Virus record (IMG/VR): IMGVR_UViG_3300037067_010746
Reading direction: 5' to 3' (one strand)
Length of the DNA: 22,141 bases
From: an uncultured virus (IMG/VR IMGVR_UViG_3300037067_010746)
Taxonomy: Duplodnaviria; Heunggongvirae; Uroviricota; Caudoviricetes
Shown: positions 1-16,414 of the stretch, one piece after another
Layout: each line of letters opens with the position of its first letter
Position numbering within the stretch: position 1 is the stretch's first letter
Made by a program: the position numbers and the translations under genes
Notes under the pieces: generated by a model
Told to the model about the DNA's origin: nothing
The model's input: only the letters and a program-made list of their open reading frames with translations
Databases searched by the model: none

Positions 1-320
1 CAGAATTTTTCTTCTTCTTGATATTTATTGATAAGCTTTTTAATAAGGCTTTGGCTAATTAGAATATAGCCATCTGTTATTTTATTTTCTCGCTTAGTAC
101 GAGTATCTGGTTTTTCATCTAAAGCTCCAGGAGGAATAGCATCCGGATTTTCTTTATAGAATACTGTAGTAGATTCTTGATTTGCTTTTTCAATAAATTC
201 ATCATCAGTTTCTTCTGTATCAAAAATCTTTCCACTAAATTCCTGTTCTTTAGCATTCTCTTGCCTACGTTGGACTATACCCTTTTCATGTATATTAGGC
301 TTAGTTATACCATATGACAT
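1..320 (-). CDS. Partial ORF running off the left edge; possibly the N-terminus of a PD-(D/E)XK exonuclease
   Basis: Hand translation from ATG at 320 (overlapping the upstream stop): MSYGITKPNIHEKG...ILISQSLIKKLINKYQEEEKF, open to base 1. The S-x-S-L-I-K segment resembles phage PD-(D/E)XK N-termini and the SSB/ATPase context fits. The catalytic part is not visible. Confidence 0.4.
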   Translation of the reverse strand, partial: MSYGITKPNIHEKGIVQRRQENAKEQEFSGKIFDTEETDDEFIEKANQESTTVFYKENPDAIPPGALDEKPDTRTKRENKITDGYILISQSLIKKLINKYQEEEKF

Positions 321-592
321 TAATAATAATTGTATAAAGTTTCAGCAAACTCTAATACCTTATCAGTAGTATCGAGTTCGCATACGATTACCGACATTGC
401 CGCTCGTCTAAGAGCAGCTTGTCGACAAATTAATGTTTCTTTATTATCACCTTTTTGAACAATCCATTTACCGAATTTATTTGAGATTTTAATAAAGTCT
501 TTAGCAATGACAACTTGACCAAGTTTTTCACAAACTACAGCAGTTGTTTCGGTTGCTACCTGTTTACATATAGAACTATCTTTTTGATTCAT
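320..592 (-). CDS. Hypothetical protein (90 aa)
   Basis: ORF coupled to both neighbours by stop/start overlaps. Confidence 0.7.
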   Translation of the reverse strand: MNQKDSSICKQVATETTAVVCEKLGQVVIAKDFIKISNKFGKWIVQKGDNKETLICRQAALRRAAMSVIVCELDTTDKVLEFAETLYNYY

Positions 593-1296
593 TAGAATGG
601 CAAATCATCTTCATTACCAATATTTGCAAATGGATCAGGATTATCTTTTGCCTCTTCAGAAGATTTAATTCTCGGAGTAAAAGATTTTGATGAACTTGTT
701 GTTGGCTCAATATCTTTATCTACAGAAGTTGATACATCGCCAGTTAATTGAGGAATAATGATATCTTTAACTTTAGAAATTAAGAATTCGTCAAGATCGC
801 TATAATCGCTTTTAATTAAAGTTCCTTTTTTGTCTACGATTTTTTCAATCATAGGAGCTAATTCTTCTCTTGTATACATATATTCAAGTTTAATATCATT
901 AGACTTAACACTTGCATTCTTATATTCTCCTTTGTTTCCAAAGTATGCAATGTAGATATTATCAAAAGAAGTTGCAGTCAGCAATCTATTAAGAATACTT
1001 CTCATTACACCATTCATTTTTTCAAATTTGCATTTAAGCCGATATCGCACTTCTGTTTCGATATCTTTTAATGTGAGAACTACAGTAGGATATACATCCC
1101 CTGATTTTTGATATTCGCCAGTACCAAACTTGATATCGATTAATTGTCCTTGAACATAATCACATTCACTTACAACTTCTCCTTTCTCTCCTTCAGCTCT
1201 GTCAAATACTTCGATGTACGCTTTATCATCTTCTTTTTTTAGATTGATAAACGTAAAGAATAGCGTTTTCCCGCCGGTTTTGTTTCCGTAAGCCAT
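592..1296 (-). CDS. Single-stranded DNA-binding protein-like
   Basis: Beta-rich N-terminal domain, low-complexity linker and acidic C-terminal tail EDDLPF typical of SSBs; lies in the replication module. Confidence 0.7.
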   Translation of the reverse strand: MAYGNKTGGKTLFFTFINLKKEDDKAYIEVFDRAEGEKGEVVSECDYVQGQLIDIKFGTGEYQKSGDVYPTVVLTLKDIETEVRYRLKCKFEKMNGVMRSILNRLLTATSFDNIYIAYFGNKGEYKNASVKSNDIKLEYMYTREELAPMIEKIVDKKGTLIKSDYSDLDEFLISKVKDIIIPQLTGDVSTSVDKDIEPTTSSSKSFTPRIKSSEEAKDNPDPFANIGNEDDLPF

Positions 1297-1312
1297 TTTT
1301 TTAACTTTTTAA

Positions 1313-2713
1313 TTATGATTCTAATATATTGATTGACAACTCTTGTTCACTATCGGCGATAACTCTATCCATAAAGATAATACCATTATATTGTTTTGCA
1401 ATATTAAGCAATTCTGGTAAACGAGTATTATCATAACTTTCAGCACTTCCTATAAGCCAAATTGGTAATGCTTGATTAAGATGAGCCATAAGTTTAATGA
1501 TAATCATACCACCTTCAGAATAACTAACTGAATCCTTTGTAAATGGAATATAATTATTCCCATCGACATAAAAGCATTCGCCATCTTCAATAGATATATT
1601 CTCTACTGGTAATTTATTCTCTTCAATGATTGCCTCTTTTCGTTCACGTTTCTTTTTAATATCAGCATCAAGAATTTGTAATTCGTCAAATTTAACTTGA
1701 GCAACTTTTTTATTTTCAGTATAAGATTTATCTTTAGCTTCGATATTTCTAACTGCTTCAATAAAAGCTTTACCTGATGTTATACGTTCACGAACTTTAA
1801 ATTCATTACCTAAGTCTTTACAGTTATTTACATCTTCTAATGCTTTGATATTTTTATCCTTTAAATCAGGCATAATATTTTCAAATCCTTTTAGCTCAGA
1901 TAACCGTTTTACTTTTTTTTCCTCAAGTGATTTTATTTGTTGAGTAATATCATCGATATCTTCTTTTGCTGAATCTATAAATAAATTATTTTGCAAAATT
2001 GCATCTTTAGTAGTTTTAAGATTTTCTGATAGTTTTGTTGGATTATTCGCAAGTATTTTTTCTAATTGTTGCTCATAAGTATAAAGTAAGTTTTTTGCAG
2101 TTTCAACTTTAGTGATTTTCTCTTTTTCTTCAGGAGTTAATTTAAATTGGTCAACAATACTTTTTGCTGCTTCATATTCTTTATTTATAATTGTACGAGA
2201 ACCATATAAAGTACCAAATTTTGGAGATACTTCATTTTCAATCTTCAAATATTCTTCTCGTGCAATATCAGGTAATAAGTTAAGAATAATTTCAGCTTGT
2301 TTTTTTCTACCTTCTGCTGTTAATCCCCAACCAAACCATTCATCAATAGTAAATGAATTATATTTGAAAATATCTGCAATTACATTATTCCTTGAAGTAC
2401 TTTTATGAACATTAGTATCTGGATCAATAATTACAAATTTATTTGTATCACTTGTAAAATCCCATTTAACGAGATAATTACCACCATTAGCACCATCAAA
2501 AGAAAATTGACCCTTAACTTGTCCATTTTCTTCTCCAAAAGATACATTATCTGTTTTCCTTGCAATGCCAGTAGCCAATGTTGAAAGACCTTGTAAAAAT
2601 GTTGTTTTACCTATATTGTTCGGACCACCGACAACATATACATTACCACTTTGAAACTCATGAGAGAAATCCTTGATTTTCTTAAAGTTTTTAAATTCTA
2701 AATTAAGATTCAT
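1313..2713 (-). CDS. Rad50/SbcC/SMC-like coiled-coil ATPase
   Basis: N-terminal LEFKNFKKIK, Walker A GPNNIGKT, long coiled coil, signature-like SYSEG and degenerate Walker B (WLIGSAESYD). Confidence 0.8.
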   Translation of the reverse strand: MNLNLEFKNFKKIKDFSHEFQSGNVYVVGGPNNIGKTTFLQGLSTLATGIARKTDNVSFGEENGQVKGQFSFDGANGGNYLVKWDFTSDTNKFVIIDPDTNVHKSTSRNNVIADIFKYNSFTIDEWFGWGLTAEGRKKQAEIILNLLPDIAREEYLKIENEVSPKFGTLYGSRTIINKEYEAAKSIVDQFKLTPEEKEKITKVETAKNLLYTYEQQLEKILANNPTKLSENLKTTKDAILQNNLFIDSAKEDIDDITQQIKSLEEKKVKRLSELKGFENIMPDLKDKNIKALEDVNNCKDLGNEFKVRERITSGKAFIEAVRNIEAKDKSYTENKKVAQVKFDELQILDADIKKKRERKEAIIEENKLPVENISIEDGECFYVDGNNYIPFTKDSVSYSEGGMIIIKLMAHLNQALPIWLIGSAESYDNTRLPELLNIAKQYNGIIFMDRVIADSEQELSINILES

Positions 2714-2714
2714 A

Positions 2715-2945
2715 TTAATTTAATTGATTAATAATTGATTTGATTTTTTCGTATTGTTCATTTATTATTACATGCTCTGATGAAAGAAATACTACACATA
2801 AACCTTTCTTTCTTGTTCTCATAATAGCTGTCTGTTTATTTATTGAAATAGATATAGGTAATGTTCTATTTCTTCCTGATAATACAGTAGTTTCGATGCG
2901 AGCTTCTGTTTCAGAATAATTTACTTCAATTGTTCCGTTTAACAT
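2715..2945 (-). CDS. Hypothetical protein (76 aa)
   Basis: Tightly packed ORF in the operon. Confidence 0.65.
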   Translation of the reverse strand: MLNGTIEVNYSETEARIETTVLSGRNRTLPISISINKQTAIMRTRKKGLCVVFLSSEHVIINEQYEKIKSIINQLN

Positions 2946-3826
2946 TAGTCTTCGTTTGAATTATTTTCATCTTCGCTATCATTATTAATCTCTTCATTAA
3001 ATATTTCATCTATTAATTTAATAACATAATCAGATGATAATTTAAAGTCAGGATTTTCCATCGATGCTCGAATAGCAGATATAAACATTAAGAAATAAGT
3101 AGTATCTACACCAATAAGTTGATCTTCTAATACTTTTACATCAAGTAAATCTAATTGATTTAATTGTACGGCCATTTTAAGATATTCTCCGGCATTTATA
3201 CTCCAGCCACGATTAATGAATTTGCGAGTTCTAATAATTGATGACAATGGATATTTACTACCAGTATAACGAAGTTCTCTTGCAAGTAAAGCTTCTGCAC
3301 TCGTTCCTGGAATAACAAGTTTATTATCCCAACTTGACCAATAAGATTTAGTATGTTCAAAATCATAATTAGCATGAATTTCTTCAGGTTCACCATAAAA
3401 ACGAATTACTAATTGGACTTTATCAGATAAAGTGATAGCATTACCAGTAATAAATATTGGTAAAAATGAATTTAGTTTATATGACTTATGAGATGCATTA
3501 AATTTAATAATACCAGCAGACGGTATAAAGATAGAAATTCTTCCATCAACTTCTTTTGTTAATAAAGAAGGAATACTCTTTTTTTGAACAATAGCACAAG
3601 CTTCAACTTGTTTAATATAGTAAGCACAGAGAGCGAGTACTGTTTCCTTATTTCTAAAATACATATCGTAATCATTTACTTCTTCTTGTAGTAACATCGA
3701 AGCAATTGCTCCACCGGTAATGATAGTATTCATTTTTACAAGATTTCTTACTGTTTCATCAGTAATACTGTTACACCATTTAGAATGAATGTATTTTAGC
3801 TGTTTTTCAATTGTTTTTCTTTTCAT
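2945..3826 (-). CDS. Phage nucleotidyltransferase-like protein (Pol-beta superfamily)
   Basis: ITGGAIASMLLQEEVNDYDMYF matches the GG...DxD motif; later YDF and RTRKFINRGW motifs recall CCA/poly(A)-polymerase-like phage proteins. Confidence 0.65.
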   Translation of the reverse strand: MKRKTIEKQLKYIHSKWCNSITDETVRNLVKMNTIITGGAIASMLLQEEVNDYDMYFRNKETVLALCAYYIKQVEACAIVQKKSIPSLLTKEVDGRISIFIPSAGIIKFNASHKSYKLNSFLPIFITGNAITLSDKVQLVIRFYGEPEEIHANYDFEHTKSYWSSWDNKLVIPGTSAEALLARELRYTGSKYPLSSIIRTRKFINRGWSINAGEYLKMAVQLNQLDLLDVKVLEDQLIGVDTTYFLMFISAIRASMENPDFKLSSDYVIKLIDEIFNEEINNDSEDENNSNED

Positions 3827-3841
3827 ATTTTTTATTTGTTT

Positions 3842-4144
3842 TTAATAAATATCAGATTCAGTTGCATCACAATAATCATGAAAGTTATTTCTTATATAAG
3901 AATTAGAAGACATTACTTCACCAGAATTAGGTTCAATAATATCATAATCTGCATCATTTAATTTTGAAAATAAAATTTCTTGTGATAAAACTTTACAATT
4001 ATTATTATCATTACCCAATACTCTAATTAATAAACTTAAAGTATTTCGTACATGATCTTCATCCATAGAACTCACAGTTTGAATTCTACCATCTTTTGTT
4101 TTCCAACATGAAATTGGTTTTTTAATTTTTTTACCGTAGCACAT
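3842..4144 (-). CDS. Hypothetical phage protein (100 aa)
   Basis: ORF coupled to the helicase stop; WKTKDG...MDEDHVRN motif. Confidence 0.65.
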   Translation of the reverse strand: MCYGKKIKKPISCWKTKDGRIQTVSSMDEDHVRNTLSLLIRVLGNDNNNCKVLSQEILFSKLNDADYDIIEPNSGEVMSSNSYIRNNFHDYCDATESDIY

Positions 4145-5574
4145 TAAATTTCTATAAATATATTATAATCTAAAGAATGAACAAATCGAATCAAAGCAGT
4201 ATCATCATCTGATGTATCTTCTCGATTTGCTCCAGTATCGACAATAAACAAATGTCGCATTGAGTCTTTGTATTCTCCATATTCATTCATAAGATCATCA
4301 TATTTCCCAGGATTATTTATTAATAATACTGAATTCGGAATACGTCTAAATGCTTCAGTTCCCTTCATATCCATTAATCGAGGACGGAAAGCACTTTTAA
4401 TACGATCTTCACTTTGTTGACTATCTTTATAATGATGAATAGGAATAATACATCCTTTGGTTTTCTGTCTAATATTTAACATTTGATTCATAACATAATC
4501 ATACATTGAATTTTCGGCACCTTTAAAATCTTCTCTATCGGACAAGGCAAGAACATTATCTACAATTAATACATTAAATCTTCCTGGACGTACTTTGCAA
4601 AAGTTTGCAAATTCATTAGCTATCTTCCAACTTCTTGCAGATTGTTCTTGAAATACAATATCAAAAGAATTAAATTTATCCATTATACCTCGAATAGAAT
4701 TTCTACTGGTATCACTAAATTGTCTTCGTTTGATATCTTTAGGTTTGACAAAAATCTTTGTAGCGAGATATCCTGCTGCAATATCCTTAGCACTATCTTC
4801 TAATGTAACCCAATAGATAGAAACATCATTATATTTCTCAAGGATAGCAAACATCATAGCCATTACAAATTTAGACTTACCATGTTTTGCTCCTCCGGCA
4901 AATAATAATATTTTATCTTTAGTTAATCCAACTTTATTATCAAACTTTTTATATCCAGTTTCCCATACAAACCTATCATTTTCTTCTTCACTCTCCATAT
5001 CATCAAGAAAACTATTAGTTACATCTTGTATAGATTTTGTAGAATCGGCTTTTTCGATACCCTCATTCATTTTAGTTAATTGAAGCATTGTATCATCAAT
5101 AGTCGTAAATATATCCTTAGAGCTATCGAAAGCATCTGTAATCTTTTCGCTACATAGTATAATAAGTCTTCTTTGTAATGATTTTTGTTTTAATATTCTA
5201 ATATGAGTTTGAATATGAGCATCAGTATAAACTTTAGTTCCCATCATTGATATTGCATATGGACCACCAGCTTCTTCAAGGCTACCCATTCGAATTAATT
5301 CTTCAACTACTGTAAGTAAATCAATATCATCACCTCGAGCATATAAATTCTTTATAGCAAGAAATGATAAATTACATGATGGAGAATAGAAATCTCCATC
5401 GTCAAGAAATGTAATAGCAAAACGAGTGTCTTTTGAGTTGGTAAGCATGATAGTACCAATAACGGCTTCTTCTAAATCTATAGATTGTGGAGGCGTTTTT
5501 CCTTCATTATTAGAAGAGAGTAGATGCCTGTTGGCTTTTATCGACTTGGACTTTTTGGGGTTGTTTGGTTCCAT
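4144..5574 (-). CDS. dnaB: DnaB-like replicative helicase
   Basis: DnaB N-domain (PPQSIDLEEAVIG, DFY, IDLLTV, AGGPYAI), Walker A GGAKHGKS, VTLED, Walker B LIVDN, RPRLMD. Confidence 0.88.
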   Translation of the reverse strand: MEPNNPKKSKSIKANRHLLSSNNEGKTPPQSIDLEEAVIGTIMLTNSKDTRFAITFLDDGDFYSPSCNLSFLAIKNLYARGDDIDLLTVVEELIRMGSLEEAGGPYAISMMGTKVYTDAHIQTHIRILKQKSLQRRLIILCSEKITDAFDSSKDIFTTIDDTMLQLTKMNEGIEKADSTKSIQDVTNSFLDDMESEEENDRFVWETGYKKFDNKVGLTKDKILLFAGGAKHGKSKFVMAMMFAILEKYNDVSIYWVTLEDSAKDIAAGYLATKIFVKPKDIKRRQFSDTSRNSIRGIMDKFNSFDIVFQEQSARSWKIANEFANFCKVRPGRFNVLIVDNVLALSDREDFKGAENSMYDYVMNQMLNIRQKTKGCIIPIHHYKDSQQSEDRIKSAFRPRLMDMKGTEAFRRIPNSVLLINNPGKYDDLMNEYGEYKDSMRHLFIVDTGANREDTSDDDTALIRFVHSLDYNIFIEI

Positions 5575-6019
5575 GCAAATTATTTTTAAATTGATTTATT
5601 GCTTCAACGATTTTATCTGGTCCACGAGTATTTAGTACATCTTGAAATTTCTCAGTAATACTACTAAATATTTCAAATGACATATTCCCGAGCATATAGA
5701 AATCACGAGGATTTTTCCCTAAACCAAAATTAGAATCATACATACCATCAGAGATAAATACAATTATACCTTTTTTCTTATCTGTTTTAGCTAAATATTT
5801 AGGATCTTTAGAGCCATGTTTTCTATCCCACCAATCACTATAAGCTTTGAACTTAGTATAAATGAAATCGAAATCCATTGGATCTCCTTGAAATGTTGTC
5901 ATACTGCTTTTTAAGTGTCTTTCAACATATGCAAACATTTGATTTTTATTTGCTTCCGGATCAAGCTTAAACAATAATTCAAATTGTTCAAGCGTCATTA
6001 CTGTTTTTTCTTCTTTCAT
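5510..6019 (-). CDS. Hypothetical protein overlapping the helicase start (possible replication/loader protein)
   Basis: 169-aa ORF directly upstream of DnaB; function inferred from position only. Confidence 0.55.
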   Translation of the reverse strand: MKEEKTVMTLEQFELLFKLDPEANKNQMFAYVERHLKSSMTTFQGDPMDFDFIYTKFKAYSDWWDRKHGSKDPKYLAKTDKKKGIIVFISDGMYDSNFGLGKNPRDFYMLGNMSFEIFSSITEKFQDVLNTRGPDKIVEAINQFKNNLHGTKQPQKVQVDKSQQASTLF

Positions 6020-6237
6020 TAATTATAAATAAAAGGATCTAACACAAAGTAATCGAGTAAGAGCCATCGTTTAAGCTCTAATATGTAGACTTGTATATTC
6101 CCTGATTTATCACGTGCTATACTATCATATTTAGCTGTATAAATAGTTTTTAAGTTTACATAAAGAGGAGCTGTTGGCAATGGTCTTACCCATAGTACTT
6201 CAGGTTTAATTTGTAATTTGTTATTAAGTTCGTTCAA
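6019..6237 (-). CDS. Hypothetical protein (72 aa)
   Basis: Coupled ORF with TTG start. Confidence 0.5.
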   Translation of the reverse strand: MNELNNKLQIKPEVLWVRPLPTAPLYVNLKTIYTAKYDSIARDKSGNIQVYILELKRWLLLDYFVLDPFIYN

Positions 6238-6287
6238 AATGTTAAGTTTTATTGTTTCTTCGAAAAGATATACAAATATACTATTAA

Positions 6288-6761
6288 CTATGAAATTTCG
6301 AGTTCTATAATTCCTGCAGCAGCTTTTAACCGAATGGAATCAATAGAATTAAGTTTAGAGAATATTCTAAACATCTCCAGATTACTATCAAAACTATACT
6401 TAGGAATAAAAATTGCATCTCCATTAGTATTTGTATTAAAGTACCCATAAAATATTCCATCTTTTAGTTTTTGTAAATATCCCCATCGATGATTCTTGGA
6501 GTTAAATATTTTAATGGTTTTCATTTGCTTATTTATACTTGGAGAAGCATAAACAGCTTTACCATTATCAATTACCATTTTACCTTTATCTTTTTTATGG
6601 ACAAGGTACCCGAGTAAGGAGCAGTACCGTACGATCTCATCATATTCTCTACTACTAAATCTTAATCGAGTTAATTCTTCTTTTACGATAGTCTCTTTTA
6701 ATAAAGAGAGTTTTTTGATATCCTCAGTTTTTAGGGAATCGAACAAATTGTTTTTTCTCAT
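6288..6761 (-). CDS. Hypothetical basic protein (157 aa)
   Basis: ORF track; same-strand packing. Confidence 0.65.
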   Translation of the reverse strand: MRKNNLFDSLKTEDIKKLSLLKETIVKEELTRLRFSSREYDEIVRYCSLLGYLVHKKDKGKMVIDNGKAVYASPSINKQMKTIKIFNSKNHRWGYLQKLKDGIFYGYFNTNTNGDAIFIPKYSFDSNLEMFRIFSKLNSIDSIRLKAAAGIIELEIS

Positions 6762-6765
6762 CGTT

Positions 6766-7071
6766 TTAATTATTATTGTTAGGATTATAAATTAGCCATT
6801 TAATAGGCAACATTAGTGATAGAACTACGTAAGTAATTCCAATAGTTATTATTATTTCAATACCTATACCATAGAATAGATAATGAATAATCATTGCGAG
6901 CCACACGCTATTACAGAAATGACAATATCCAAAAGAGTTTCGAATAGACCATTTCATTTTATGAAGGATTTTAAACCACCAATGTAATGGATGTCCAGGA
7001 AACATTAATTTTTGATATATTAATTCTAAACCAGCTATAGCAATTCCGAGTATTATGTAATTACTCAACAT
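6766..7071 (-). CDS. Membrane protein with CxxC (DUF1360-like)
   Basis: Likely start MLSNYIILG at 7071; hydrophobic helices and GYCHFCNSVW motif. Confidence 0.55.
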   Translation of the reverse strand: MLSNYIILGIAIAGLELIYQKLMFPGHPLHWWFKILHKMKWSIRNSFGYCHFCNSVWLAMIIHYLFYGIGIEIIITIGITYVVLSLMLPIKWLIYNPNNNN

Positions 7072-7291
7072 ACCTTTCTTTTTGAATTTGTTTAAACTTT
7101 TTTTTATTGTATGGATAAATTTTACACCACTTATCAATAATAACAGTATTACGCTTATATAAGAGTACACGTAAGTTTCTTGTATATATATTGATAATTC
7201 TGCTTACCGAAGCTAATGATAGCTCAGGAACGTCCTTACGTACCTTTTCGAGCACTCTTGATGCGTAGTCTTTAGGTTTTAATTTCTTCAT
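7061..7291 (-). CDS. Small basic protein, possibly HU/IHF-like
   Basis: Two helices (LSLASVSRIINIYTRNLRVLL) followed by a beta strand (VIIDKWCKI), as in HU; Lys/Arg-rich. Confidence 0.4.
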   Translation of the reverse strand: MKKLKPKDYASRVLEKVRKDVPELSLASVSRIINIYTRNLRVLLYKRNTVIIDKWCKIYPYNKKKFKQIQKERYVE

Positions 7292-7514
7292 TTTCTAAAA
7301 TTAATAAACCTTTATCACTTCTAATGATTTTACCTTTTCTTATAGCACCAATAATTCGTGTATTTTTTAATACACTTACAATTGAAATAATAGCTATTGG
7401 TGGTATCTCTTTTTGTATTTGATCAAACATAATATCGCAATCTACATGACTTGTAAATAAACCACATATTATATCTTCAACTAAAAGAACAAAGATTAAT
7501 GATGATTGTGTCAA
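7272..7514 (-). CDS. Hypothetical protein (80 aa)
   Basis: Overlaps the UDG stop. Confidence 0.55.
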   Translation of the reverse strand: MTQSSLIFVLLVEDIICGLFTSHVDCDIMFDQIQKEIPPIAIISIVSVLKNTRIIGAIRKGKIIRSDKGLLILENEEIKT

Positions 7515-8056
7515 AATAATGATTTTGCTTTAATAAAATCTTTTACAACCTTATCATATAATTCATAATTACTCGAACGTATTAAATTAGTTGGATGTAA
7601 TGTAGGCATAACATGAATACCATTAGGCAATATAATAAATTTACCTCTAAGTTTAGAAATGCTACGTTGCCGAGTTATGGCATATAAAGCTATAGAACCA
7701 AGAGTAATAATTACTGTAGGATTTAAAATAATTTGTTGTGTTTTTAAATTAAATCTACACATGTCAACATCATTATGAGTTATCCTTTTATTACTCCTAC
7801 ATTTAACTGCATGTGTAATATAAACATCATCACGATATATTCCGGAGTCAGTAAGTATACTATTAAGAACAAAACCAACATTCCCAATAAATGGCATACC
7901 ATAAGCATCTTCTTCTTTATTTGGTGCTTCACCAACAATCATGATTTTAGCATTAGGATTTCCTTCTCCGGGAACGAGGTTTAATCGAGAATCGTGTTGA
8001 ATACACTTTTGACACTTCTGAAGTTCTAAGTGTAATTGGTTGAGATTTAAGTTCAT
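7511..8056 (-). CDS. Uracil-DNA glycosylase, family 4 (4Fe-4S)
   Basis: CQKC, VPGEGNPNAKIMIVGEAP, ED..G.PFIG, VKCR, fourth Cys, TLG, MPTLHP. Confidence 0.9.
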   Translation of the reverse strand: MNLNLNQLHLELQKCQKCIQHDSRLNLVPGEGNPNAKIMIVGEAPNKEEDAYGMPFIGNVGFVLNSILTDSGIYRDDVYITHAVKCRSNKRITHNDVDMCRFNLKTQQIILNPTVIITLGSIALYAITRQRSISKLRGKFIILPNGIHVMPTLHPTNLIRSSNYELYDKVVKDFIKAKSLF

Positions 8057-8267
8057 CTATATTTATCAATTTACGTATTGCTTGATAATGTCCTTCAAGT
8101 GCTTTATATAAGCAATTAGAAAATGATATTTCATTTACTCTACTTTCACCACTATTACGGAGATCTTCAATTAAATTATGCATTATTATCATCATATCAG
8201 ATGTTTCTTGATCTAATCGAGAAAACTGATTTTCTATTTTCTTTAATCGTTTAAATATTTTAAACAT
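7953..8267 (-). CDS. Hypothetical protein (104 aa) overlapping the UDG 5' end
   Basis: ATG overlaps the upstream ORF end; 104-nt overlap with UDG. Confidence 0.5.
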   Translation of the reverse strand: MFKIFKRLKKIENQFSRLDQETSDMMIIMHNLIEDLRNSGESRVNEISFSNCLYKALEGHYQAIRKLINIDELKSQPITLRTSEVSKVYSTRFSIKPRSRRRKS

Positions 8268-8565
8268 CTTCCATATCTATTTCTTGTAATAACTTACAAA
8301 TTTGTATTAAGATAATAGTATCTGTTACTGAATAAATAGGTTCAGATAGTATCCCTTGAGATATAAGTTGTTCCAAAATACCTTCATTTTCAGAATAGTT
8401 TTTAATACAAACTTCATTTTTTTCTAAAATAATTTCCGGAACATTAACTGTTACCGTTGCGTAAGGCTCACCACCTTTTGTAATTAACATAAGAGCTATT
8501 CTATCATTATTTTGATATTTGCTTTTCCAAATGTCCATCACTTCACCATTGATTTTTACTTCCAT
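8260..8565 (-). CDS. DUF4313-like phage protein
   Basis: YQNNDRIALML...GEPYATVTVN...IKNYSENEG pattern. Confidence 0.6.
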   Translation of the reverse strand: MEVKINGEVMDIWKSKYQNNDRIALMLITKGGEPYATVTVNVPEIILEKNEVCIKNYSENEGILEQLISQGILSEPIYSVTDTIILIQICKLLQEIDMEDV

Positions 8566-8580
8566 GAGATTTATTATTAA

Positions 8581-8715
8581 TTAATATACATATACTTTGA
8601 TTAATATCCACCAATTAAATATCTTACGATATACTCTAATTGTATGTACCATAATACTGCCATGACCTACTATGACAGTTTTTCTTTTTGTTTTAAATTT
8701 AATTTCTTTATTCAT
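8581..8715 (-). CDS. Small basic ORF (44 aa), not in the ORF track
   Basis: Hand translation MNKEIKFKTKRKTVIVGHGSIMVHTIRVYRKIFNWWILIKVYVY; start overlaps the end of the upstream gene. Confidence 0.4.
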   Translation of the reverse strand: MNKEIKFKTKRKTVIVGHGSIMVHTIRVYRKIFNWWILIKVYVY

Positions 8716-8923
8716 TATCTATTACAAATTTTACATTTAATATTTTTTGTACTGTTCTGCATTTTTTAACTCCATTGTAAGAAAGTCCATTTTGTTGTGC
8801 GTATTGAGGAATAGTTTGTATGTTTAAATATGCTCCTACAAGTTCAATTAATTGAACTAATTCTGTGTTTGAAACTTTACCTTCGTAAATATTTTTTTCA
8901 ACTTCTTGTATTAAATTACTCAT
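8708..8923 (-). CDS. Small putative HTH (excisionase/MerR-like) DNA-binding protein
   Basis: ATG at 8923; C-terminal TIPQYAQQNGLSYNGVKK...ILNVKFV resembles a winged HTH. Confidence 0.45.
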   Translation of the reverse strand: MSNLIQEVEKNIYEGKVSNTELVQLIELVGAYLNIQTIPQYAQQNGLSYNGVKKCRTVQKILNVKFVIDNE

Positions 8924-8973
8924 AATCAACTTATTTTTTTGGTTAAATTTATTGAATTACGTTTAGTAGGATG

Positions 8974-9378
8974 TTAGCACCCATTCGAAAGACGCAGCAG
9001 CACATCGGCATGGCACGGCTTATTTAATGAGCAAAAACATGATAGATTTTTACCTTTAAGAATTGAATAATCGGGCGGAGTTGGTAAACAACTTTGTTTT
9101 AATTCACCTTTTATCCATTGTTCGTAAAGGTCAACAATATCAGATAAATCAAAACCGCCAGCAGCACTCCAATAAATCCAACGGTCTAATATGTTTCGAT
9201 TTGTCGAATAACACATTATCCAACCATCAGGAGTTAATTTAAACGGATTACCAAACTTTGTCGGTCTTCCAACATAAACAGTATTTTCAGGAGTTTTATA
9301 TCCTTTAGCCCTCGAACGCTGAAAACGAACGGGTGCTAACAATATGTTTATGCAATTGGGTTTTTGTGGTGTATTCAT
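8974..9378 (-). CDS. DUF4326 family protein (cassette 1)
   Basis: VYVGRPTKFGNPF...LKGKNLSCFC...PCHADVLLRLSN motifs. Confidence 0.85.
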   Translation of the reverse strand: MNTPQKPNCINILLAPVRFQRSRAKGYKTPENTVYVGRPTKFGNPFKLTPDGWIMCYSTNRNILDRWIYWSAAGGFDLSDIVDLYEQWIKGELKQSCLPTPPDYSILKGKNLSCFCSLNKPCHADVLLRLSNGC

Positions 9379-9462
9379 CTGTATTACAATTTATTAAGTT
9401 AGTACTATTTTTATAGCGCAGTGGCTTATAATCCCCAACTGCACAAACATTTAACGTTGTAA
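9334..9462 (+). repeat. attC-like site A
   Basis: tgctAAC-aat-ATGTTTaTGCAaTTGGG...CCCAAcTGCAcAAACAT-ttaac-GTTgtaa; about 129 nt. Confidence 0.8.
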
Positions 9463-9468
9463 ACAATG

Positions 9469-9669
9469 CTACAACTTTGCTAATAATTCATCTAATTTAG
9501 AATTTAACGAATCCAACCTATCATAATTTGAGTAGGTTAATAAAGTTTCGTCAACATCTGTTAATTGCTCTTTAGTTAATGTCTTGCTTATTTCAATCAA
9601 TTCTTCTTCTTCAAAAATTGTAGCAGTTAAGTTTCTGCGTTTCTCTAATAATTCGTTAAATTTTTCCAT
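9469..9669 (-). CDS. Hypothetical acidic protein (cassette 2)
   Basis: 66-aa ORF filling the space between sites A and B. Confidence 0.7.
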   Translation of the reverse strand: MEKFNELLEKRRNLTATIFEEEELIEISKTLTKEQLTDVDETLLTYSNYDRLDSLNSKLDELLAKL

Positions 9670-9705
9670 CTTATAATTAAGTTATTCGTTAATAATCTGC
9701 ACAGT

Positions 9706-9758
9706 TTACAACAATAAATAAAAAACATTAAAACGATTTTTTATTCAAACCGTTATAG
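9706..9758 (+). repeat. attC-like site B (short)
   Basis: ttacAAC-aat-aAATAAAAAA...TTTTTTATTc-aaacc-GTTatag; about 53 nt. Confidence 0.7.
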
Positions 9759-9780
9759 CCAATTAAAAAGACGGCTACGA

Positions 9781-10083
9781 TTAAGCAAGTTTCGACTTAT
9801 CAAATCCTGCGATTTTAATTTCCACCTTTTCTCGTTGCATTTTACCATCTTGATAATACTCTGTCCAAATGTCGCCACTTTCTTCACCTTCACCTGATAG
9901 TTTAAATACAACTTTTGGGTGTCTTTTTGAGTATTCCACCATATTTTCTTTATGGTCGTACCATTTAATTTCGCCATCAAAGCAGTTGTTATAATCAGCT
10001 AACTCGCTAATCTCTTTTTCGTAATCAGTAACATAGTCGTTACCTTCTACAATCTCTAATTCGTGTCTTGTGTAGTATCCCAT
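9781..10083 (-). CDS. Hypothetical phage protein, 100 aa (cassette 3)
   Basis: Likely start MGYYTRHELEIV at 10083; KWYDH and LSGEGEESGDIW motifs common in phage proteins. Confidence 0.75.
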   Translation of the reverse strand: MGYYTRHELEIVEGNDYVTDYEKEISELADYNNCFDGEIKWYDHKENMVEYSKRHPKVVFKLSGEGEESGDIWTEYYQDGKMQREKVEIKIAGFDKSKLA

Positions 10084-10087
10084 TTCT

Positions 10088-10410
10088 TTAAAAATTAACT
10101 GGCTATAACACACAATAAAAAATATNNNNNNNNNNTTTTTGGCCAATTAAACATCCCAGCTACGTTCCCATTCTTGGATTATGTTTCTGTAATATTCTAC
10201 CGACTTTAACTTTTTGTAAGGATTGTTTTTTCGTAATCCATTTGGAAACTCACAACATAATCCATCGTGTCCAGTCATTCCATCTCCATCATGGCAACCG
10301 CATTTACATTCCATTACAACTGCCCATTTATATTTTTTATATGTCTTACAAAAAGTGCATTTACACATCTGATTAAAAATTAACTGGCTATAACACACAA
10401 TAAAAAATAT
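10088..10410 (+). repeat. 38-nt exact direct repeat (10088-10125 and 10373-10410), the left arms of attC-like sites C and D; site C is broken by an N gap
   Basis: TTAAAAATTAACTGGCTATAACACACAATAAAAAATAT occurs twice; Ns at 10126-10135. Confidence 0.9.
10147..10368 (-). CDS. Cys/His-rich small protein, 73 aa (cassette 4)
   Basis: Likely start MCKCTFCK at 10368; CKCGCH...HDGLCC suggests metal binding. Confidence 0.65.
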   Translation of the reverse strand: MCKCTFCKTYKKYKWAVVMECKCGCHDGDGMTGHDGLCCEFPNGLRKNNPYKKLKSVEYYRNIIQEWERSWDV

Positions 10411-10517
10411 ATGGGTGTTTGTGCCTATTTGTGCAGTTGTACCTTTAATTTGCTTCAATGTATGAGGACAGGTTACTGCTTTGAAATCCCATACATTTCT
10501 TATTGCCACCGTTAGTA
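10388..10517 (+). repeat. attC-like site D
   Basis: ctatAAC-aca-CAATAAaAAATaTATGGG...CCCATAcATTTcTTATTG-ccacc-GTTagta; about 130 nt. Confidence 0.8.
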
Positions 10518-10523
10518 GCCATT

Positions 10524-11147
10524 TTAAGAACCCCACTGCAACGCCATTGCTTCGGCAATTCCGGTAAAGGTTTTGGAACGGGCTTTCCTTCGTTCTTCTT
10601 TTGGTAATTTAAAAGATTCATAGTGCAATCGGCTGTCTGTTCGTCCACTTTTATGCACTATAATATCAGGTTCAACAATATTTGTAGGTTGTAGTTTTTG
10701 CAATCCTGCAATCCATAAACAAGTGCTTTTGCGTTCAGTATGCCCAAATTGGTAGGGTTGTATTATTTGGGCTGGCTTTTTATAAAGTCGGCTCATTATT
10801 CCAATTGGGTTTTCAATATAACCTTTACCAATTTTCTCCAATGCTTCGGCACACTTCAAAAAGTGTTCAATTGCTTCGGCTCTTTGTTCGTGTATGTTTG
10901 GGAAGCGTTCAGCGTATTCAGGCTTGTAATACTTATTAGCTGCAACTGTTAGTCTTGTACATTCTGGGTGCATACCTAAAAAGTCAGGCTTAATAAATTC
11001 TATTGCCTCAAAGCAATCCATTTGTAAGTGTCTTTCGGGGTGTTTTCCGCTTGCTGGTAATAAATCACAACTATAAGCATCGTGTCCAGCATTTAAAAAC
11101 GCTTGCATTACTGTTTGGCTTTCTTCGTGTGTTATCAATACTATCAT
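10524..11147 (-). CDS. Short phage-type DNA cytosine methyltransferase-like protein (cassette 5)
   Basis: VLITHEESQ...AF...GHDAYSCDL, HPECT (PC-like motif IV), IENP (motif VI), IIQPYQFGH, KSTCLW, RSKTFTGIAEAMALQW. Confidence 0.75.
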   Translation of the reverse strand: MIVLITHEESQTVMQAFLNAGHDAYSCDLLPASGKHPERHLQMDCFEAIEFIKPDFLGMHPECTRLTVAANKYYKPEYAERFPNIHEQRAEAIEHFLKCAEALEKIGKGYIENPIGIMSRLYKKPAQIIQPYQFGHTERKSTCLWIAGLQKLQPTNIVEPDIIVHKSGRTDSRLHYESFKLPKEERRKARSKTFTGIAEAMALQWGS

Positions 11148-11221
11148 AAAATTTGATTAAAAAATGAATAAAAACGGCACATAATACTACCTATACGTCA
11201 GTTTGCAAAAAGCAAACCGAT

Positions 11222-11497
11222 TTATTGCGGTTTCCATTCTTTATTACATTTAGTGCATATAAATTTTATGGGCGAACATTCATCTTCATCACAAGTGCAA
11301 ACCGATTTGCTAATATCAGCTAAATCTAATTTGCTTTGTTCTATGCTCGCTTGTAAAGCTTTGTTTTCTTCGTTCATTGCATATAGCAAGTTGTCTATAT
11401 TATTTACTTGCATCATTGCATACAATTCGTCTTTGGTATCTATTGCGTGTAATAGTTTACCTCTTATTTCTGATAATTCAATTATGTGTTTTTCCAT
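11222..11497 (-). CDS. Hypothetical protein with C-terminal Cys-rich (zinc-ribbon-like) tail (cassette 6)
   Basis: 91 aa; coiled-coil N-terminal part, then CTC...C...CTKC. Confidence 0.65.
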   Translation of the reverse strand: MEKHIIELSEIRGKLLHAIDTKDELYAMMQVNNIDNLLYAMNEENKALQASIEQSKLDLADISKSVCTCDEDECSPIKFICTKCNKEWKPQ

Positions 11498-11624
11498 ATT
11501 TTACACGTATTAAGTTATTTTTAAATTATTCGCAAACTATTGTTAGCTGTATAGCGTTATAGCCAATTACGTACAGCGTTGCTCGTACCTATTTAGCTTT
11601 TCATTATTCTAAAATTAATATGAT

Positions 11625-11679
11625 AAAAAAAAACTCAAGCAAAGCTTTCCAATAACACCATATTATTACTTTGCTTGAG
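11625..11679 (-). terminator. Putative terminator or processing hairpin
   Basis: 11-bp stem CTCAAGCAAAG/CTTTGCTTGAG with a 24-nt loop, followed by T9 on the minus strand. Confidence 0.5.
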
Positions 11680-11696
11680 AAGTACGGATATACTTG

Positions 11697-11789
11697 AAGA
11701 GATGATCGGATTCGAACCGATAGCGTTAAATGAATGGGATACATTTAATGTTCTAACCAATTGGTTTTCGACCTACGAACTACACCTCC
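11697..11789 (-). tRNA. Atypical tRNA-like gene (possibly Gly-CCC-derived, or a pseudo-tRNA)
   Basis: Acceptor GGAGGTG/CATCTCT, D stem GTTC/GAAC, T arm ATCGG-TTCGAAT-CCGAT; enlarged D loop and anticodon arm. Confidence 0.7.
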
Positions 11790-11791
11790 AT

Positions 11792-11830
11792 AAAAAAAGC
11801 CTTCTCGTATCTCTACATAAGAAGGCTTTT
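11792..11830 (-). terminator. Putative intrinsic terminator
   Basis: AAAAGCCTTCT/AGAAGGCTTTT stem with a T run on the minus strand, just after the 11838 stop. Confidence 0.65.
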
Positions 11831-11837
11831 ATATTTA

Positions 11838-12227
11838 TTAAACATTTGGCTGGACATCTGTTCCATCAAGTTTAAGATAAGATAGATCTTGATTATTTAA
11901 GTCCTTAAGGTTTATATTTAATATTTTATAAAATTCAGCGTTTCCGCTTAAGGACTTTCCGAGAATCACCACCTCAACTTCCAATATCTCATTAATAAAT
12001 AAAACAGAAATTTGAATAGTTGAAATATAGTTTATCAACTGACTCTGGACTATATTATCAATATTTAAACTTGCAATAGGTATATCTATATCAACATTAC
12101 TGCCGATATCTACTCCTATTACGTACCCTTGACTAACATCTACATTTAATGTAGTGTTCGATGCCATTAATAAACTCGTAAATAATAACGAGATAATAAC
12201 AGCTAATAAACCACGTAATGAATTCAT
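11838..12227 (-). CDS. Hypothetical exported/membrane protein
   Basis: Likely ATG at 12227; MNSLRGLLAVIISLLFTSLLMA is signal-peptide-like. Confidence 0.5.
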   Translation of the reverse strand: MNSLRGLLAVIISLLFTSLLMASNTTLNVDVSQGYVIGVDIGSNVDIDIPIASLNIDNIVQSQLINYISTIQISVLFINEILEVEVVILGKSLSGNAEFYKILNINLKDLNNQDLSYLKLDGTDVQPNV

Positions 12228-15926: not shown

Positions 15927-16219
15927 AATAAATTGTTTAATATTAATTGATTTTATTTAACTGTAAGGCTCGGGGGGTCGCATAGGGGTATTCAGCGAGG
16001 GCGTAGATTTGGAATAAAGGTATGTGGGGGTATAATACCAAAGTAGATAGAACTTGAGTAGAGCTAACTTATAGCGAAATATGTAGGGGGGTTATGGGGG
16101 ATGGGGTGTTTTGATTGGGTGGGGGTGTTGAAAAGTGTGTTAATAACTGTATGACTAATATATTGTGCATTGACTAATATATTAGTTACTTTGTAATCGA
16201 GATATTAATATCATTACAG
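15927..16219. promoter_or_regulatory. Divergent intergenic region with G runs and an operator-like repeat
   Basis: Coding strand switches here; many G3-G6 runs; TGACTAATATATT at 16152 and 16171. Confidence 0.6.
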
Positions 16220-16414
16220 ATGACGATTAGATACAAGTGGGTTGCATTGCGGAAAAAGAGTAGGATTAGTATTTCCGAAATAAGCCGAAGAACAGGTATC
16301 AGTCGTAACATGGTATCTCTTTATGAGAATGGGAAGTGTGATATCGGAACAGATAAGTTAGAAATGATGATACAGTCAATAGGAAGTGAGTTACAAATAA
16401 AAACAGTCGAGTAA
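16220..16414 (+). CDS. XRE/Cro-type HTH regulator
   Basis: LRKKSRISISEISRRTGISRNMVSLYENGK. Confidence 0.88.
   Translation: MTIRYKWVALRKKSRISISEISRRTGISRNMVSLYENGKCDIGTDKLEMMIQSIGSELQIKTVE

Follow-up and report, generated by a model that had tools for sequence, protein, structure and literature searches.

An array of integron-like gene cassettes in an uncultured tailed phage and its likeness to arrays adjoining an Xer-type recombinase in Bacteroidota phages

Introduction

Integrons are regarded as bacterial platforms defined by the integrase IntI. Clusters of attC sites without an integrase are called CALINs; the program IntegronFinder, which detects integrons, is that of Cury et al. 2016 (PMC4889954). 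Two other kinds of element bear on the present work: Xer enzymes, which resolve chromosome dimers at dif, and the PeSL elements of T4-type phages, which are said to be conserved promoter/terminator sequence motifs that recombine by homology. Here we describe a 22,141-nucleotide stretch of DNA from the uncultured virus IMGVR_UViG_3300037067_010746 (Caudoviricetes), referred to below as the window, in which five to six single-gene cassettes follow one another at positions 8973-11569. The genes of this array are without exception on the minus strand. Inverted arms of ~15 nt (GTTA...TAAC), different for each cassette, bound the intact ones, and imperfect hairpins separate the cassettes. We think it likely that Bacteroidota phages have an integron-like cassette system of Xer type and that this array belongs to it, lacks the recombinase and is served in trans.

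An earlier note on this DNA, made from the sequence alone, had taken cassette arrays to be rarely described in phages; they are already in print, including that of a related phage. Qi et al. 2023 (PMC9892861) list, in the portions of the paper available to us, 17 phage CALINs, among them that of Polaribacter phage P12002L, in which HattCI and Infernal had been used to identify the sites. The P12002L array region that we examined overlaps this published CALIN. According to the same portions, IntI1 integrated P12002L_attC2 into attI1 at G|TT, from the bottom strand only (PMC9892861). Those portions contain no occurrence of the word 'Flavobacterium' and mention neither 15-bp arms nor an Xer-type recombinase. 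In the literature searched we found no description of an Xer-type recombinase linked to phage cassette arrays.

A further system to be compared is formed by the rAID-1 clusters of gut Bacteroidales (Ross et al. 2019; 10.1101/471110), in which, as far as the available part of that report goes, a XerD-like recombinase is accompanied by co-oriented, low-GC small genes and by intergenic repeats reminiscent of integrons. The loci described here share with them the Bacteroidota setting and an Xer-type tyrosine recombinase beside a co-oriented array of small genes. By their description the two are set apart: the rAID-1 clusters are chromosomal, have the recombinase at the 5' end of the array and carry interbacterial immunity genes, whereas the viral loci have the recombinase at the 3' end.

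Results

The minus strand carries every gene of the window from 8.7 to 15.9 kb. Viewed on the plus strand, an intact cassette of the array starts with GTTA or GTTG followed by ~11 specific bases and ends with the complement of these bases and AAC. The repeats that the earlier note had quoted were all found in place and the complementarity that it reported for the arms of cassettes 1 to 3 was reproduced (Table 1). Its proposal that the AAC end fits its own cassette better than the same site was borne out, with 14, 12 and 14 of 16 positions matching the own cassette and 7 and 8 of 16 matching within the site (cassettes 1 and 2). Sites A, B and D fold as imperfect hairpins, site C is broken by a run of Ns, and sites E and F are degenerate, as had been proposed: the arms of cassette 5 have diverged, and 11556-11569 is a solo arm. 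The same preference was seen in a larger sample of 28 non-redundant sites drawn from modules pre-selected at >=13/16 (>=12 in the window): the complementarity to the own arm averaged 13.6/16 and that within the same site 8.9/16, and the own value was the higher at 27 of the 28. By its structure the window array would count as a putative CALIN: at least four sites lie within 2.6 kb, and the 22 kb contain no recombinase. The case from the window DNA alone is modest; the decisive support came from relatives and from contigs aligned to the window.

The earlier note had read the array as the product of attC-type cassette acquisition and shuffling, and this is supported by the architecture, by the relatives and by the gain and loss of cassettes at the core. 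The run that best covers the window sequence, a groundwater metagenome that may be the sample of origin, consists of k-mer contigs. One of these joins 8972 to 9456, the 483 nt skipped (GT..AC, 3 ambiguous bases) being cassette 1 and hairpin A, and another joins 9755 to 10140, with cassette 3 dropped. The joined forms had depths of 17.8 and 14.4, the cassette-bearing contigs of 7.9 and 7.4. The backbone had a depth of ~35, whereas 595 was reached over hairpin A and 395 over hairpin D. In many contigs the shared sequence takes in hairpin A, from the TAAC core (9337) or as far as ..AACGTT (9458), and different arms lie beyond it. Another contig, L128, the sole locus found by a metagenome search with the DnaB-like helicase, is 99.98% identical to window positions 1-8979 over 8979 nt and bears a different cassette end, ...AATTGTTGCTAAC, on the same constant flank; the switch lies inside the shared TGCTAAC. 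End complementarity is kept in homologous cassettes: the DUF4326 cassette (cassette 1) recurs in loci L018 and L019 at 84% DNA identity with the same arms, its homology to the window stopping at 8973/8974 and ~9341, and no other open reading frame (ORF) of at least 60 aa is common to these loci and the window.

The same array architecture was present in 9/9 Flavobacterium phages examined and in P12002L. DNA similarity of the window to cultured Flavobacterium phages is limited to the 207-aa gene (10531-11148; 37 records, 83-84.5%), which in these phages is itself a cassette (GTTATAAGCAAGCTGC ... GCAGCCAGCTTATAAC) within arrays of 9-15 units. In P12002L, an intergenic stretch (30919-30954) is 97% identical over 36 nt to the hairpin B region (9719-9754). 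When nine Flavobacterium phages, more than 93% identical where aligned, were compared, the mosaic breakpoints of their arrays fell overwhelmingly at ...AACGTTA|. Read from the constant end (ATATTGTAG|TTAT), the order of cassettes is shuffled: A B C .. D E F G H I J in mumin, A L M N O P Q E F G R H I in snork6-2, V A L M N O P W Q G R H I J in lillamy, S A H' T U B C .. in filifjonk, Z X A Y F G R H I J in snusmum6-1 and aA Q aB A F G R H I J in hattifnatt. Cassette Q is translocated, and zero to three extra cassettes stand between the constant end and cassette A. Taken with the metagenome joints and the switch in L128, these data show gain, loss and exchange of cassettes at G|TT, with a minority of breakpoints beside the core. 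Every cassette retains the hairpin on its plus-strand right regardless of its neighbour, and cassette A retains an 85-nt hairpin in 9/9 phages beside six different neighbours. The mobile unit, read on the coding strand, therefore appears to consist of hairpin, GTTA-arm, ORF and arm-TAAC and to be cut after TAA|C, which is the classical G|TT on the opposite strand.

Some further features of the Flavobacterium phages may be mentioned here. Tiny coding sequences of ~100-130 nt that are annotated as 'hypothetical protein' in their records fall inside inter-cassette hairpins (L004 2321-2425; L012 2124-2234 and 3835-3939; L011 2309-2425; and others). These are probably not genes, and records of such phages should be used with caution, many of their tiny 'hypothetical proteins' sitting inside putative recombination hairpins. 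Several of the long hairpin loops hold an ATG that opens a short frame into the 3' stem, which could encode a leader peptide. At the left end of L004-L012 (~97 to 992/1381), a 906-nt exonuclease gene alternates with a pair of genes of 1146 and 147 nt; this module swap has sharp breakpoints that are unrelated to GTT cores.

The arms of 59 non-redundant modules form a 15-bp stem in which positions 1-4 are GTTA, whereas positions 5-10 and 12-15 vary freely and yet remain complementary. Position 11 is a G.T pair on the coding strand in 52 of the 59 modules, and accordingly A.C on the other strand; position 16 is mostly unpaired (46/59). The long hairpins (n=58, 85-130 nt) behave alike: the 5' and 3' stems of the same hairpin scored 27.4 on average and stems of different hairpins 12.0, and the own score exceeded the 95th percentile of the cross scores in 58/58. 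G.T accounted for 79 of the 143 stem mismatches, and the coding strand was the more stable fold in 47/58 hairpins (p = 8e-7). In the window, hairpin D has a predicted energy of -19.6 kcal/mol on the minus strand and -15.2 on the plus strand. The excess of own over cross stem scores, the excess of G.T and the greater stability of the coding strand indicate that the sites are conserved as structures of one strand and not as sequences. As arms and hairpins covary with a conserved coding-strand G.T wobble, the coding strand is probably the strand that folds.

A recombinase gene adjoins such arrays in other viral contigs. In loci L019 and L034 the array ends at ...GGCTATAAC|TATTATATGTA, and the gene of a 277-aa tyrosine recombinase begins 54 nt past the AAC; next come genes for an SbcC-like protein, a hydrolase and a helicase. 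In the viral loci the recombinase stands in the context of a phage replication module. The protein matches PF00589 at 5e-36. Its best NCBIfam model is XerA_Arch (192.6 bits, cut-off 220), the integron integrase model TIGR02249 reaching 169.5 bits in two stretches (cut-off 265), and the closest solved structures are those of XerA (5hxy, 4a8e), followed by VchIntIA. The alignment to VchIntIA is split into two pieces (query 10-177 and 202-274 on chain 9-179 and 246-319), with ~42 residues missing; the IntI-specific insert is therefore missing from the recombinase. The Arg, His-x-x-Arg, His and Tyr positions, which we take to be the catalytic set, are invariant in the recombinase alignment (A1). 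In its best sequence matches and its length class the protein is like the Xer family (XerA, XerC/D); unlike Xer enzymes, the array-linked family adjoins cassette arrays in viral contigs at an attI-like site.

An IMG/VR profile search built on five of these recombinases returned 120 relatives, of which the best 80 loci (54-100% identity) were analysed. Upstream of the recombinase, 147 modules were found in 222.7 kb, 135 of them with the G.T signature in the orientation of the recombinase, compared to 10 modules in 296.5 kb downstream, one with the signature. Among the 63 loci with >=1 kb of upstream DNA, 58 had at least one module on that side and 39 at least two; downstream, a single module was present in 10/76 loci and two modules in none. 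A junction of the AAC|TATTATATGTA type precedes the recombinase gene, mostly at -54, in 65/77 loci compared to 4/76 control windows, and the identical junction sequence carries five different last-cassette arms across loci. This conserved junction is the signature of a putative attI-like site. Compared by eye, the constant flank of the window has no claimable similarity to the motif. A search of genome contigs with the recombinase, by a method sensitive to near relatives only, gave one close relative (68% identical) on a 2.7-kb contig of a metagenome-assembled genome and no homologue in Flavobacterium.

These arrays resemble integrons and CALINs in several respects: single-gene cassettes stand between imperfect hairpins bounded by AAC...GTT and are exchanged at G|TT, a cassette begins with a match to its own 3' site, the TAAC core often contains the stop codon, the first cassette beside the constant site is variable and the cargo includes methyltransferases. 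They differ in that the complementary ends are of ~15 bp and not 7, with a fixed G.T at position 11; in that the ORFs are on the best-folding strand, antisense to the classical orientation, and point to the constant end or the recombinase; and in that the linked recombinase is without the IntI-specific insert, co-oriented with the array and downstream of it. Feature by feature, attC-type imperfect hairpins with inverse AAC/GTT cores are present. An attI-like site with a variable first cassette is found in the relatives, the window having a constant flank with three alternative first cassettes and no integrase. An IntI-type integrase beside the array is found neither in the window nor in the relatives, whose enzyme scores below the integron integrase cut-off and lacks the insert, and ORFs reading away from attI are not found either, since all read towards the constant end or the recombinase. 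The window array departs from the classical integron in three features (no IntI domain, inverted ORFs, no integrase), yet it is like an integron array in all respects testable.

Discussion

In the cycle that we propose, the mobile unit would comprise, in coding-strand order, an imperfect hairpin (39-123 nt), GTTA with a cassette-specific arm, the ORF, and the complementary arm with TAAC. It would be excised between two AAC/GTT cores, which would then be joined. In the circularised unit the two arms and the hairpin would form one long composite stem-loop, and this would be the reason why the ends of a cassette are complementary to each other and not to those of its neighbours. Re-insertion would take place preferentially at the attI-like end. 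The enzyme is most likely the ~277-aa Xer/IntI-related tyrosine recombinase without the IntI-specific insert, which probably recognises the folded coding strand, so that the substrate would be single-stranded. Such an integron-type cycle would explain the self-complementary ends, the covariation, the fixed wobble (as a mark of strand or register) and the piling up of variable cassettes at the constant end. Because no such enzyme is encoded in the 22 kb of the window, this array would either be served in trans, with the enzyme supplied from elsewhere in the genome, by the host or by a co-infecting phage, or be a slowly decaying remnant of the CALIN type; signs of decay are seen in sites E and F and in cassette 6, which are degenerate.

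A wider proposal, for and against which we see equal weight, is that Bacteroidota phages run a capture platform of their own, integron-like but distinct from IntI integrons. An Xer-type enzyme without the IntI insert would recombine folded coding-strand sites, marked by the G.T, into an attI-like site; the cassettes would carry an upstream hairpin and 15-bp ends; and virulent phages without the enzyme, such as this one, would borrow the recombinase of a co-infecting phage or of the host to trade methyltransferases and other likely counter-defence genes.

If true, this would mean that the IntI-specific domain is not needed for cassette capture. It would show concretely by what mechanism the accessory regions of phages, here rich in DNA methyltransferases, become mosaics of single genes, and small, defined components would suffice to test how attC-type sites originated: a 277-aa enzyme, an attI-like motif of ~11 nt and hairpins with one diagnostic wobble.

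Several observations weigh against an integron-like cassette system. The folding energies of A, B and D on the better-folding minus strand gave weak z-scores (-0.08, -1.59 and -2.37), not clearly better than those of shuffles. RNAalifold returned no consensus pairs on a MAFFT alignment of the 58 hairpins; this is because indels misalign the stems, and the comparison of own and cross stems was used in its place. The coding-strand G.T wobble suits RNA pairing equally as single-stranded DNA. The metagenome joints rest on contig sides of 27 and 29 nt, below the 30-nt warning level. A minority of the breakpoints among the Flavobacterium phages lie beside an arm or hairpin, off the core (AAAAACAGC|, |ATAACAAGTG and AAAGCAC|), so homology-driven exchange also acts. 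The ORFs bordered by the arm family GTTATAGCCAGTTAA are not the same in the window as in L019, which is unexpected under a strict cassette model. P12002L_attC1, a short hairpin between two methyltransferase genes and of the same short class as site B, did not recombine with IntI1, according to the available portions of PMC9892861. Finally, tblastn found no tyrosine recombinase homologue in the 22-kb window, a PF00589 gene was found in 0/5 complete cultured phage genomes with arrays, and the annotation of hattifnatt9-1 lists no tyrosine recombinase. The statement of the earlier note that there is no integrase thus stands for the window and for 5/5 of these cultured phages, but not for the many related viral contigs that encode an Xer-type recombinase beside their arrays.

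Part of this evidence could be accommodated if the hairpins and arms were regulatory or RNA elements (terminators, processing stems that close ORFs, or 5' leaders), shuffled by general or short-homology recombination with the help of phage recombination proteins, the recombinase being an ordinary lysogeny integrase beside an accessory region; we hold this, the main rival reading, to be unlikely. That breakpoints coincide with the longest shared stretches (CACAAAGCCnCGAGAACGTTAT) is inevitable, and some are off the core, but beyond 4-6 nt the sites differ (8.9/16 within a site; 12 for cross stems against 27 for own stems), leaving little homology. The phages do encode an exonuclease, a NinG/Rap-type protein and HNH endonucleases, and no integrase. 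Against this reading, a conserved motif adjoins the last cassette in most of the 77 loci, at a fixed spacing of ~54 nt from the recombinase gene, and the arrays keep to one side of that gene. A conserved coding-strand G.T is tolerated in RNA pairing, and a hairpin with its 5' arm that is common to different ORFs is like a portable leader, whereas the accumulation of variable cassettes at the constant end and the recombination of one related site at G|TT by IntI1 (PMC9892861, portions available) argue for site-specific capture. The PeSL elements of T4-type phages, by function the nearest counterpart known from phages, offer a precedent (PMC2839356 and PMC4122927, in the parts available): there too, single accessory genes in hyperplastic regions are bounded by stem-loops and are inserted, deleted or swapped. 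Unlike in PeSLs, the stems described here are site-specific, covary, and are linked to a dedicated tyrosine recombinase.

It is far less probable that the arm-flanked genes are small transposon-like elements of the kind of MITEs (miniature transposable elements with inverted repeats), with a transposase encoded elsewhere. The ~15-nt terminal inverted repeats with their conserved GTTA end would fit such elements, but each is single-copy, with its own arm sequence and cargo. A survey reports, in the part available, thousands of MITEs in Flavobacterium genomes that are shared with viral sequences (PMC11602168), and tools for finding MITEs might count arm-flanked cassettes and hairpins among them; the elements described here were found solely as head-to-tail, co-oriented arrays beside one recombinase family, and no transposase was found in the window. 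Chance repeats in AT-rich DNA or an assembly artefact might be suggested by the N gap and 36-nt duplication within the array and by the 15-nt inverted pairs of the window (at most one mismatch, 100-1500 nt apart), which were not enriched overall, 8 being counted compared to 9.4 expected from simulations. This reading can be dismissed, since GTT-anchored pairs numbered 3 compared to 0.21 expected (the maximum in 100 Markov simulations being 2), the same design, with covariation, recurs in over 80 viral contigs and in complete genomes of cultured phages, and the recombinase linkage and the cassette switch in L128 have no place in such an explanation.

Features of the window

The coordinates of the array are given in Table 1.

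Table 1. Elements of the cassette array, in window coordinates
Feature	Position	Strand	Description
Constant flank (attI-like side)	8946..8972		27 nt adjoining the array; joined to three different first cassettes (window, metagenome contig, L128)
Cassette 1	8973..9340	-	arms 8973-8987 and 9326-9340 (14/15); DUF4326 ORF
Hairpin A	9341..9455	-	115 nt; terminal stem ~17 bp; family multi-copy in metagenomes
Cassette 2	9456..9712	-	arms 9456-9469 and 9699-9712 (12/14); ORF 9469-9669 (66 aa, no family)
Hairpin B	9713..9751	-	39 nt, short class; coding-strand loop carries GTTTTAAT
Cassette 3	9752..10109	-	arms 9752-9766 and 10095-10109 (14/15); ORF 9781-10083 (100 aa, phrog_6306)
Hairpin C remnant	10110..10139	-	interrupted by assembly gap, N run 10126-10135
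Cassette 4	10140..10394	-	right arm 10380-10394; left arm lost in gap; ORF 10147-10368 (73 aa, Cys-rich)
Hairpin D	10395..10510	-	116 nt; terminal stem ~19 bp; multi-copy family
Cassette 5	10511..11175	-	degenerate arms 10511-10525 and 11161-11175 (11/15); ORF 10524-11147 (207 aa, phrog_757)
Site E	11176..11221	-	short, degenerate; contains GTTTGC-AAAAA-GCAAAC hairpin
ORF 6	11222..11497	-	91 aa, no family, no recognisable arms
Upstream array end	11542..11569	-	two solo GTTA-type arm remnants, 11542-11555 and 11556-11569

A contig of the groundwater run spans exactly 9456-9756, the region of cassette 2. The left arm of cassette 3 pairs also with the right arm of cassette 4, because a 36-nt repeat (10088-10125 = 10373-10410) includes both partners. 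The N gap sits between the two copies of this repeat, which accounts for the assembly break at hairpin C. The TTTTT on the 3' side of the gap is probably an artefact, as a contig of the same run has GTTA directly and then TGGCCAATTAA; it also supplies the true left arm of cassette 4, which starts GTTATGGCC and reads GTTATGGCCAATTAA. Hairpin D is 74% identical over 154 nt to a hairpin-bearing stretch of L019 (1855-2001) and ~80% identical over 51 nt to a hairpin of L048 (3488-3609). ORF 6 may be a decayed cassette, and the solo arm 11556-11569 belongs to the GTTATAGCCAAT arm family. No other hairpins of the array family were found elsewhere in the window.

The protein of cassette 1 is a DUF4326 protein (PF14216, 2e-18); the five others encoded in the array are listed in Table 1. 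The label 'DNA methyltransferase' of the 207-aa protein comes from PHROGs and GenBank records only, and Pfam, NCBIfam and PDB sequence searches gave no match that would support it. The NCBIfam search, made with seven proteins (the six cassette proteins and the flanking 73-aa ORF), returned no match. The DUF4326 ORF runs over 8974-9342 with a TTG start or over 8974-9378 with an ATG start within hairpin A. In the first case the last base of the start codon, TTG in the window and GTG in L019, is the G of the GTTA core, so that the start codon would be assembled at the cassette junction. The alternative, an in-frame ATG inside the upstream hairpin, is kept in both the window (9340-9378) and L019 (1453-1503).

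The window as a whole is phage-like, with a DnaB-type helicase, an SbcC-like ATPase, a UDG-family protein and tail-related matches; a search of viral contigs with the UDG-like protein gave no relative. The first gene past the constant end encodes 73 aa in the window (8708-8929, minus strand) and 65 aa in the Flavobacterium phages (L011 1786-1983); it is no more than a guess that this small protein takes part in the directionality of recombination. ARAGORN predicted a 94-nt tRNA-Leu (11696-11789, minus strand; anticodon TAG) immediately upstream of the array, as read on the coding strand, which has long insertions relative to the tRNA model and is flanked by two terminator-like hairpins with T runs (11790-11830 and ~11620-11670). 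It was the sole match (34 bits) in an Rfam E-value scan of positions 8500-12000, which gave no match for the cassette sites. Between the minus- and plus-strand gene blocks, the divergent region 15927-16225 contains C-rich tracts (CCCC/CCCCC) in a genome of 30% GC and may be a regulatory or origin region.

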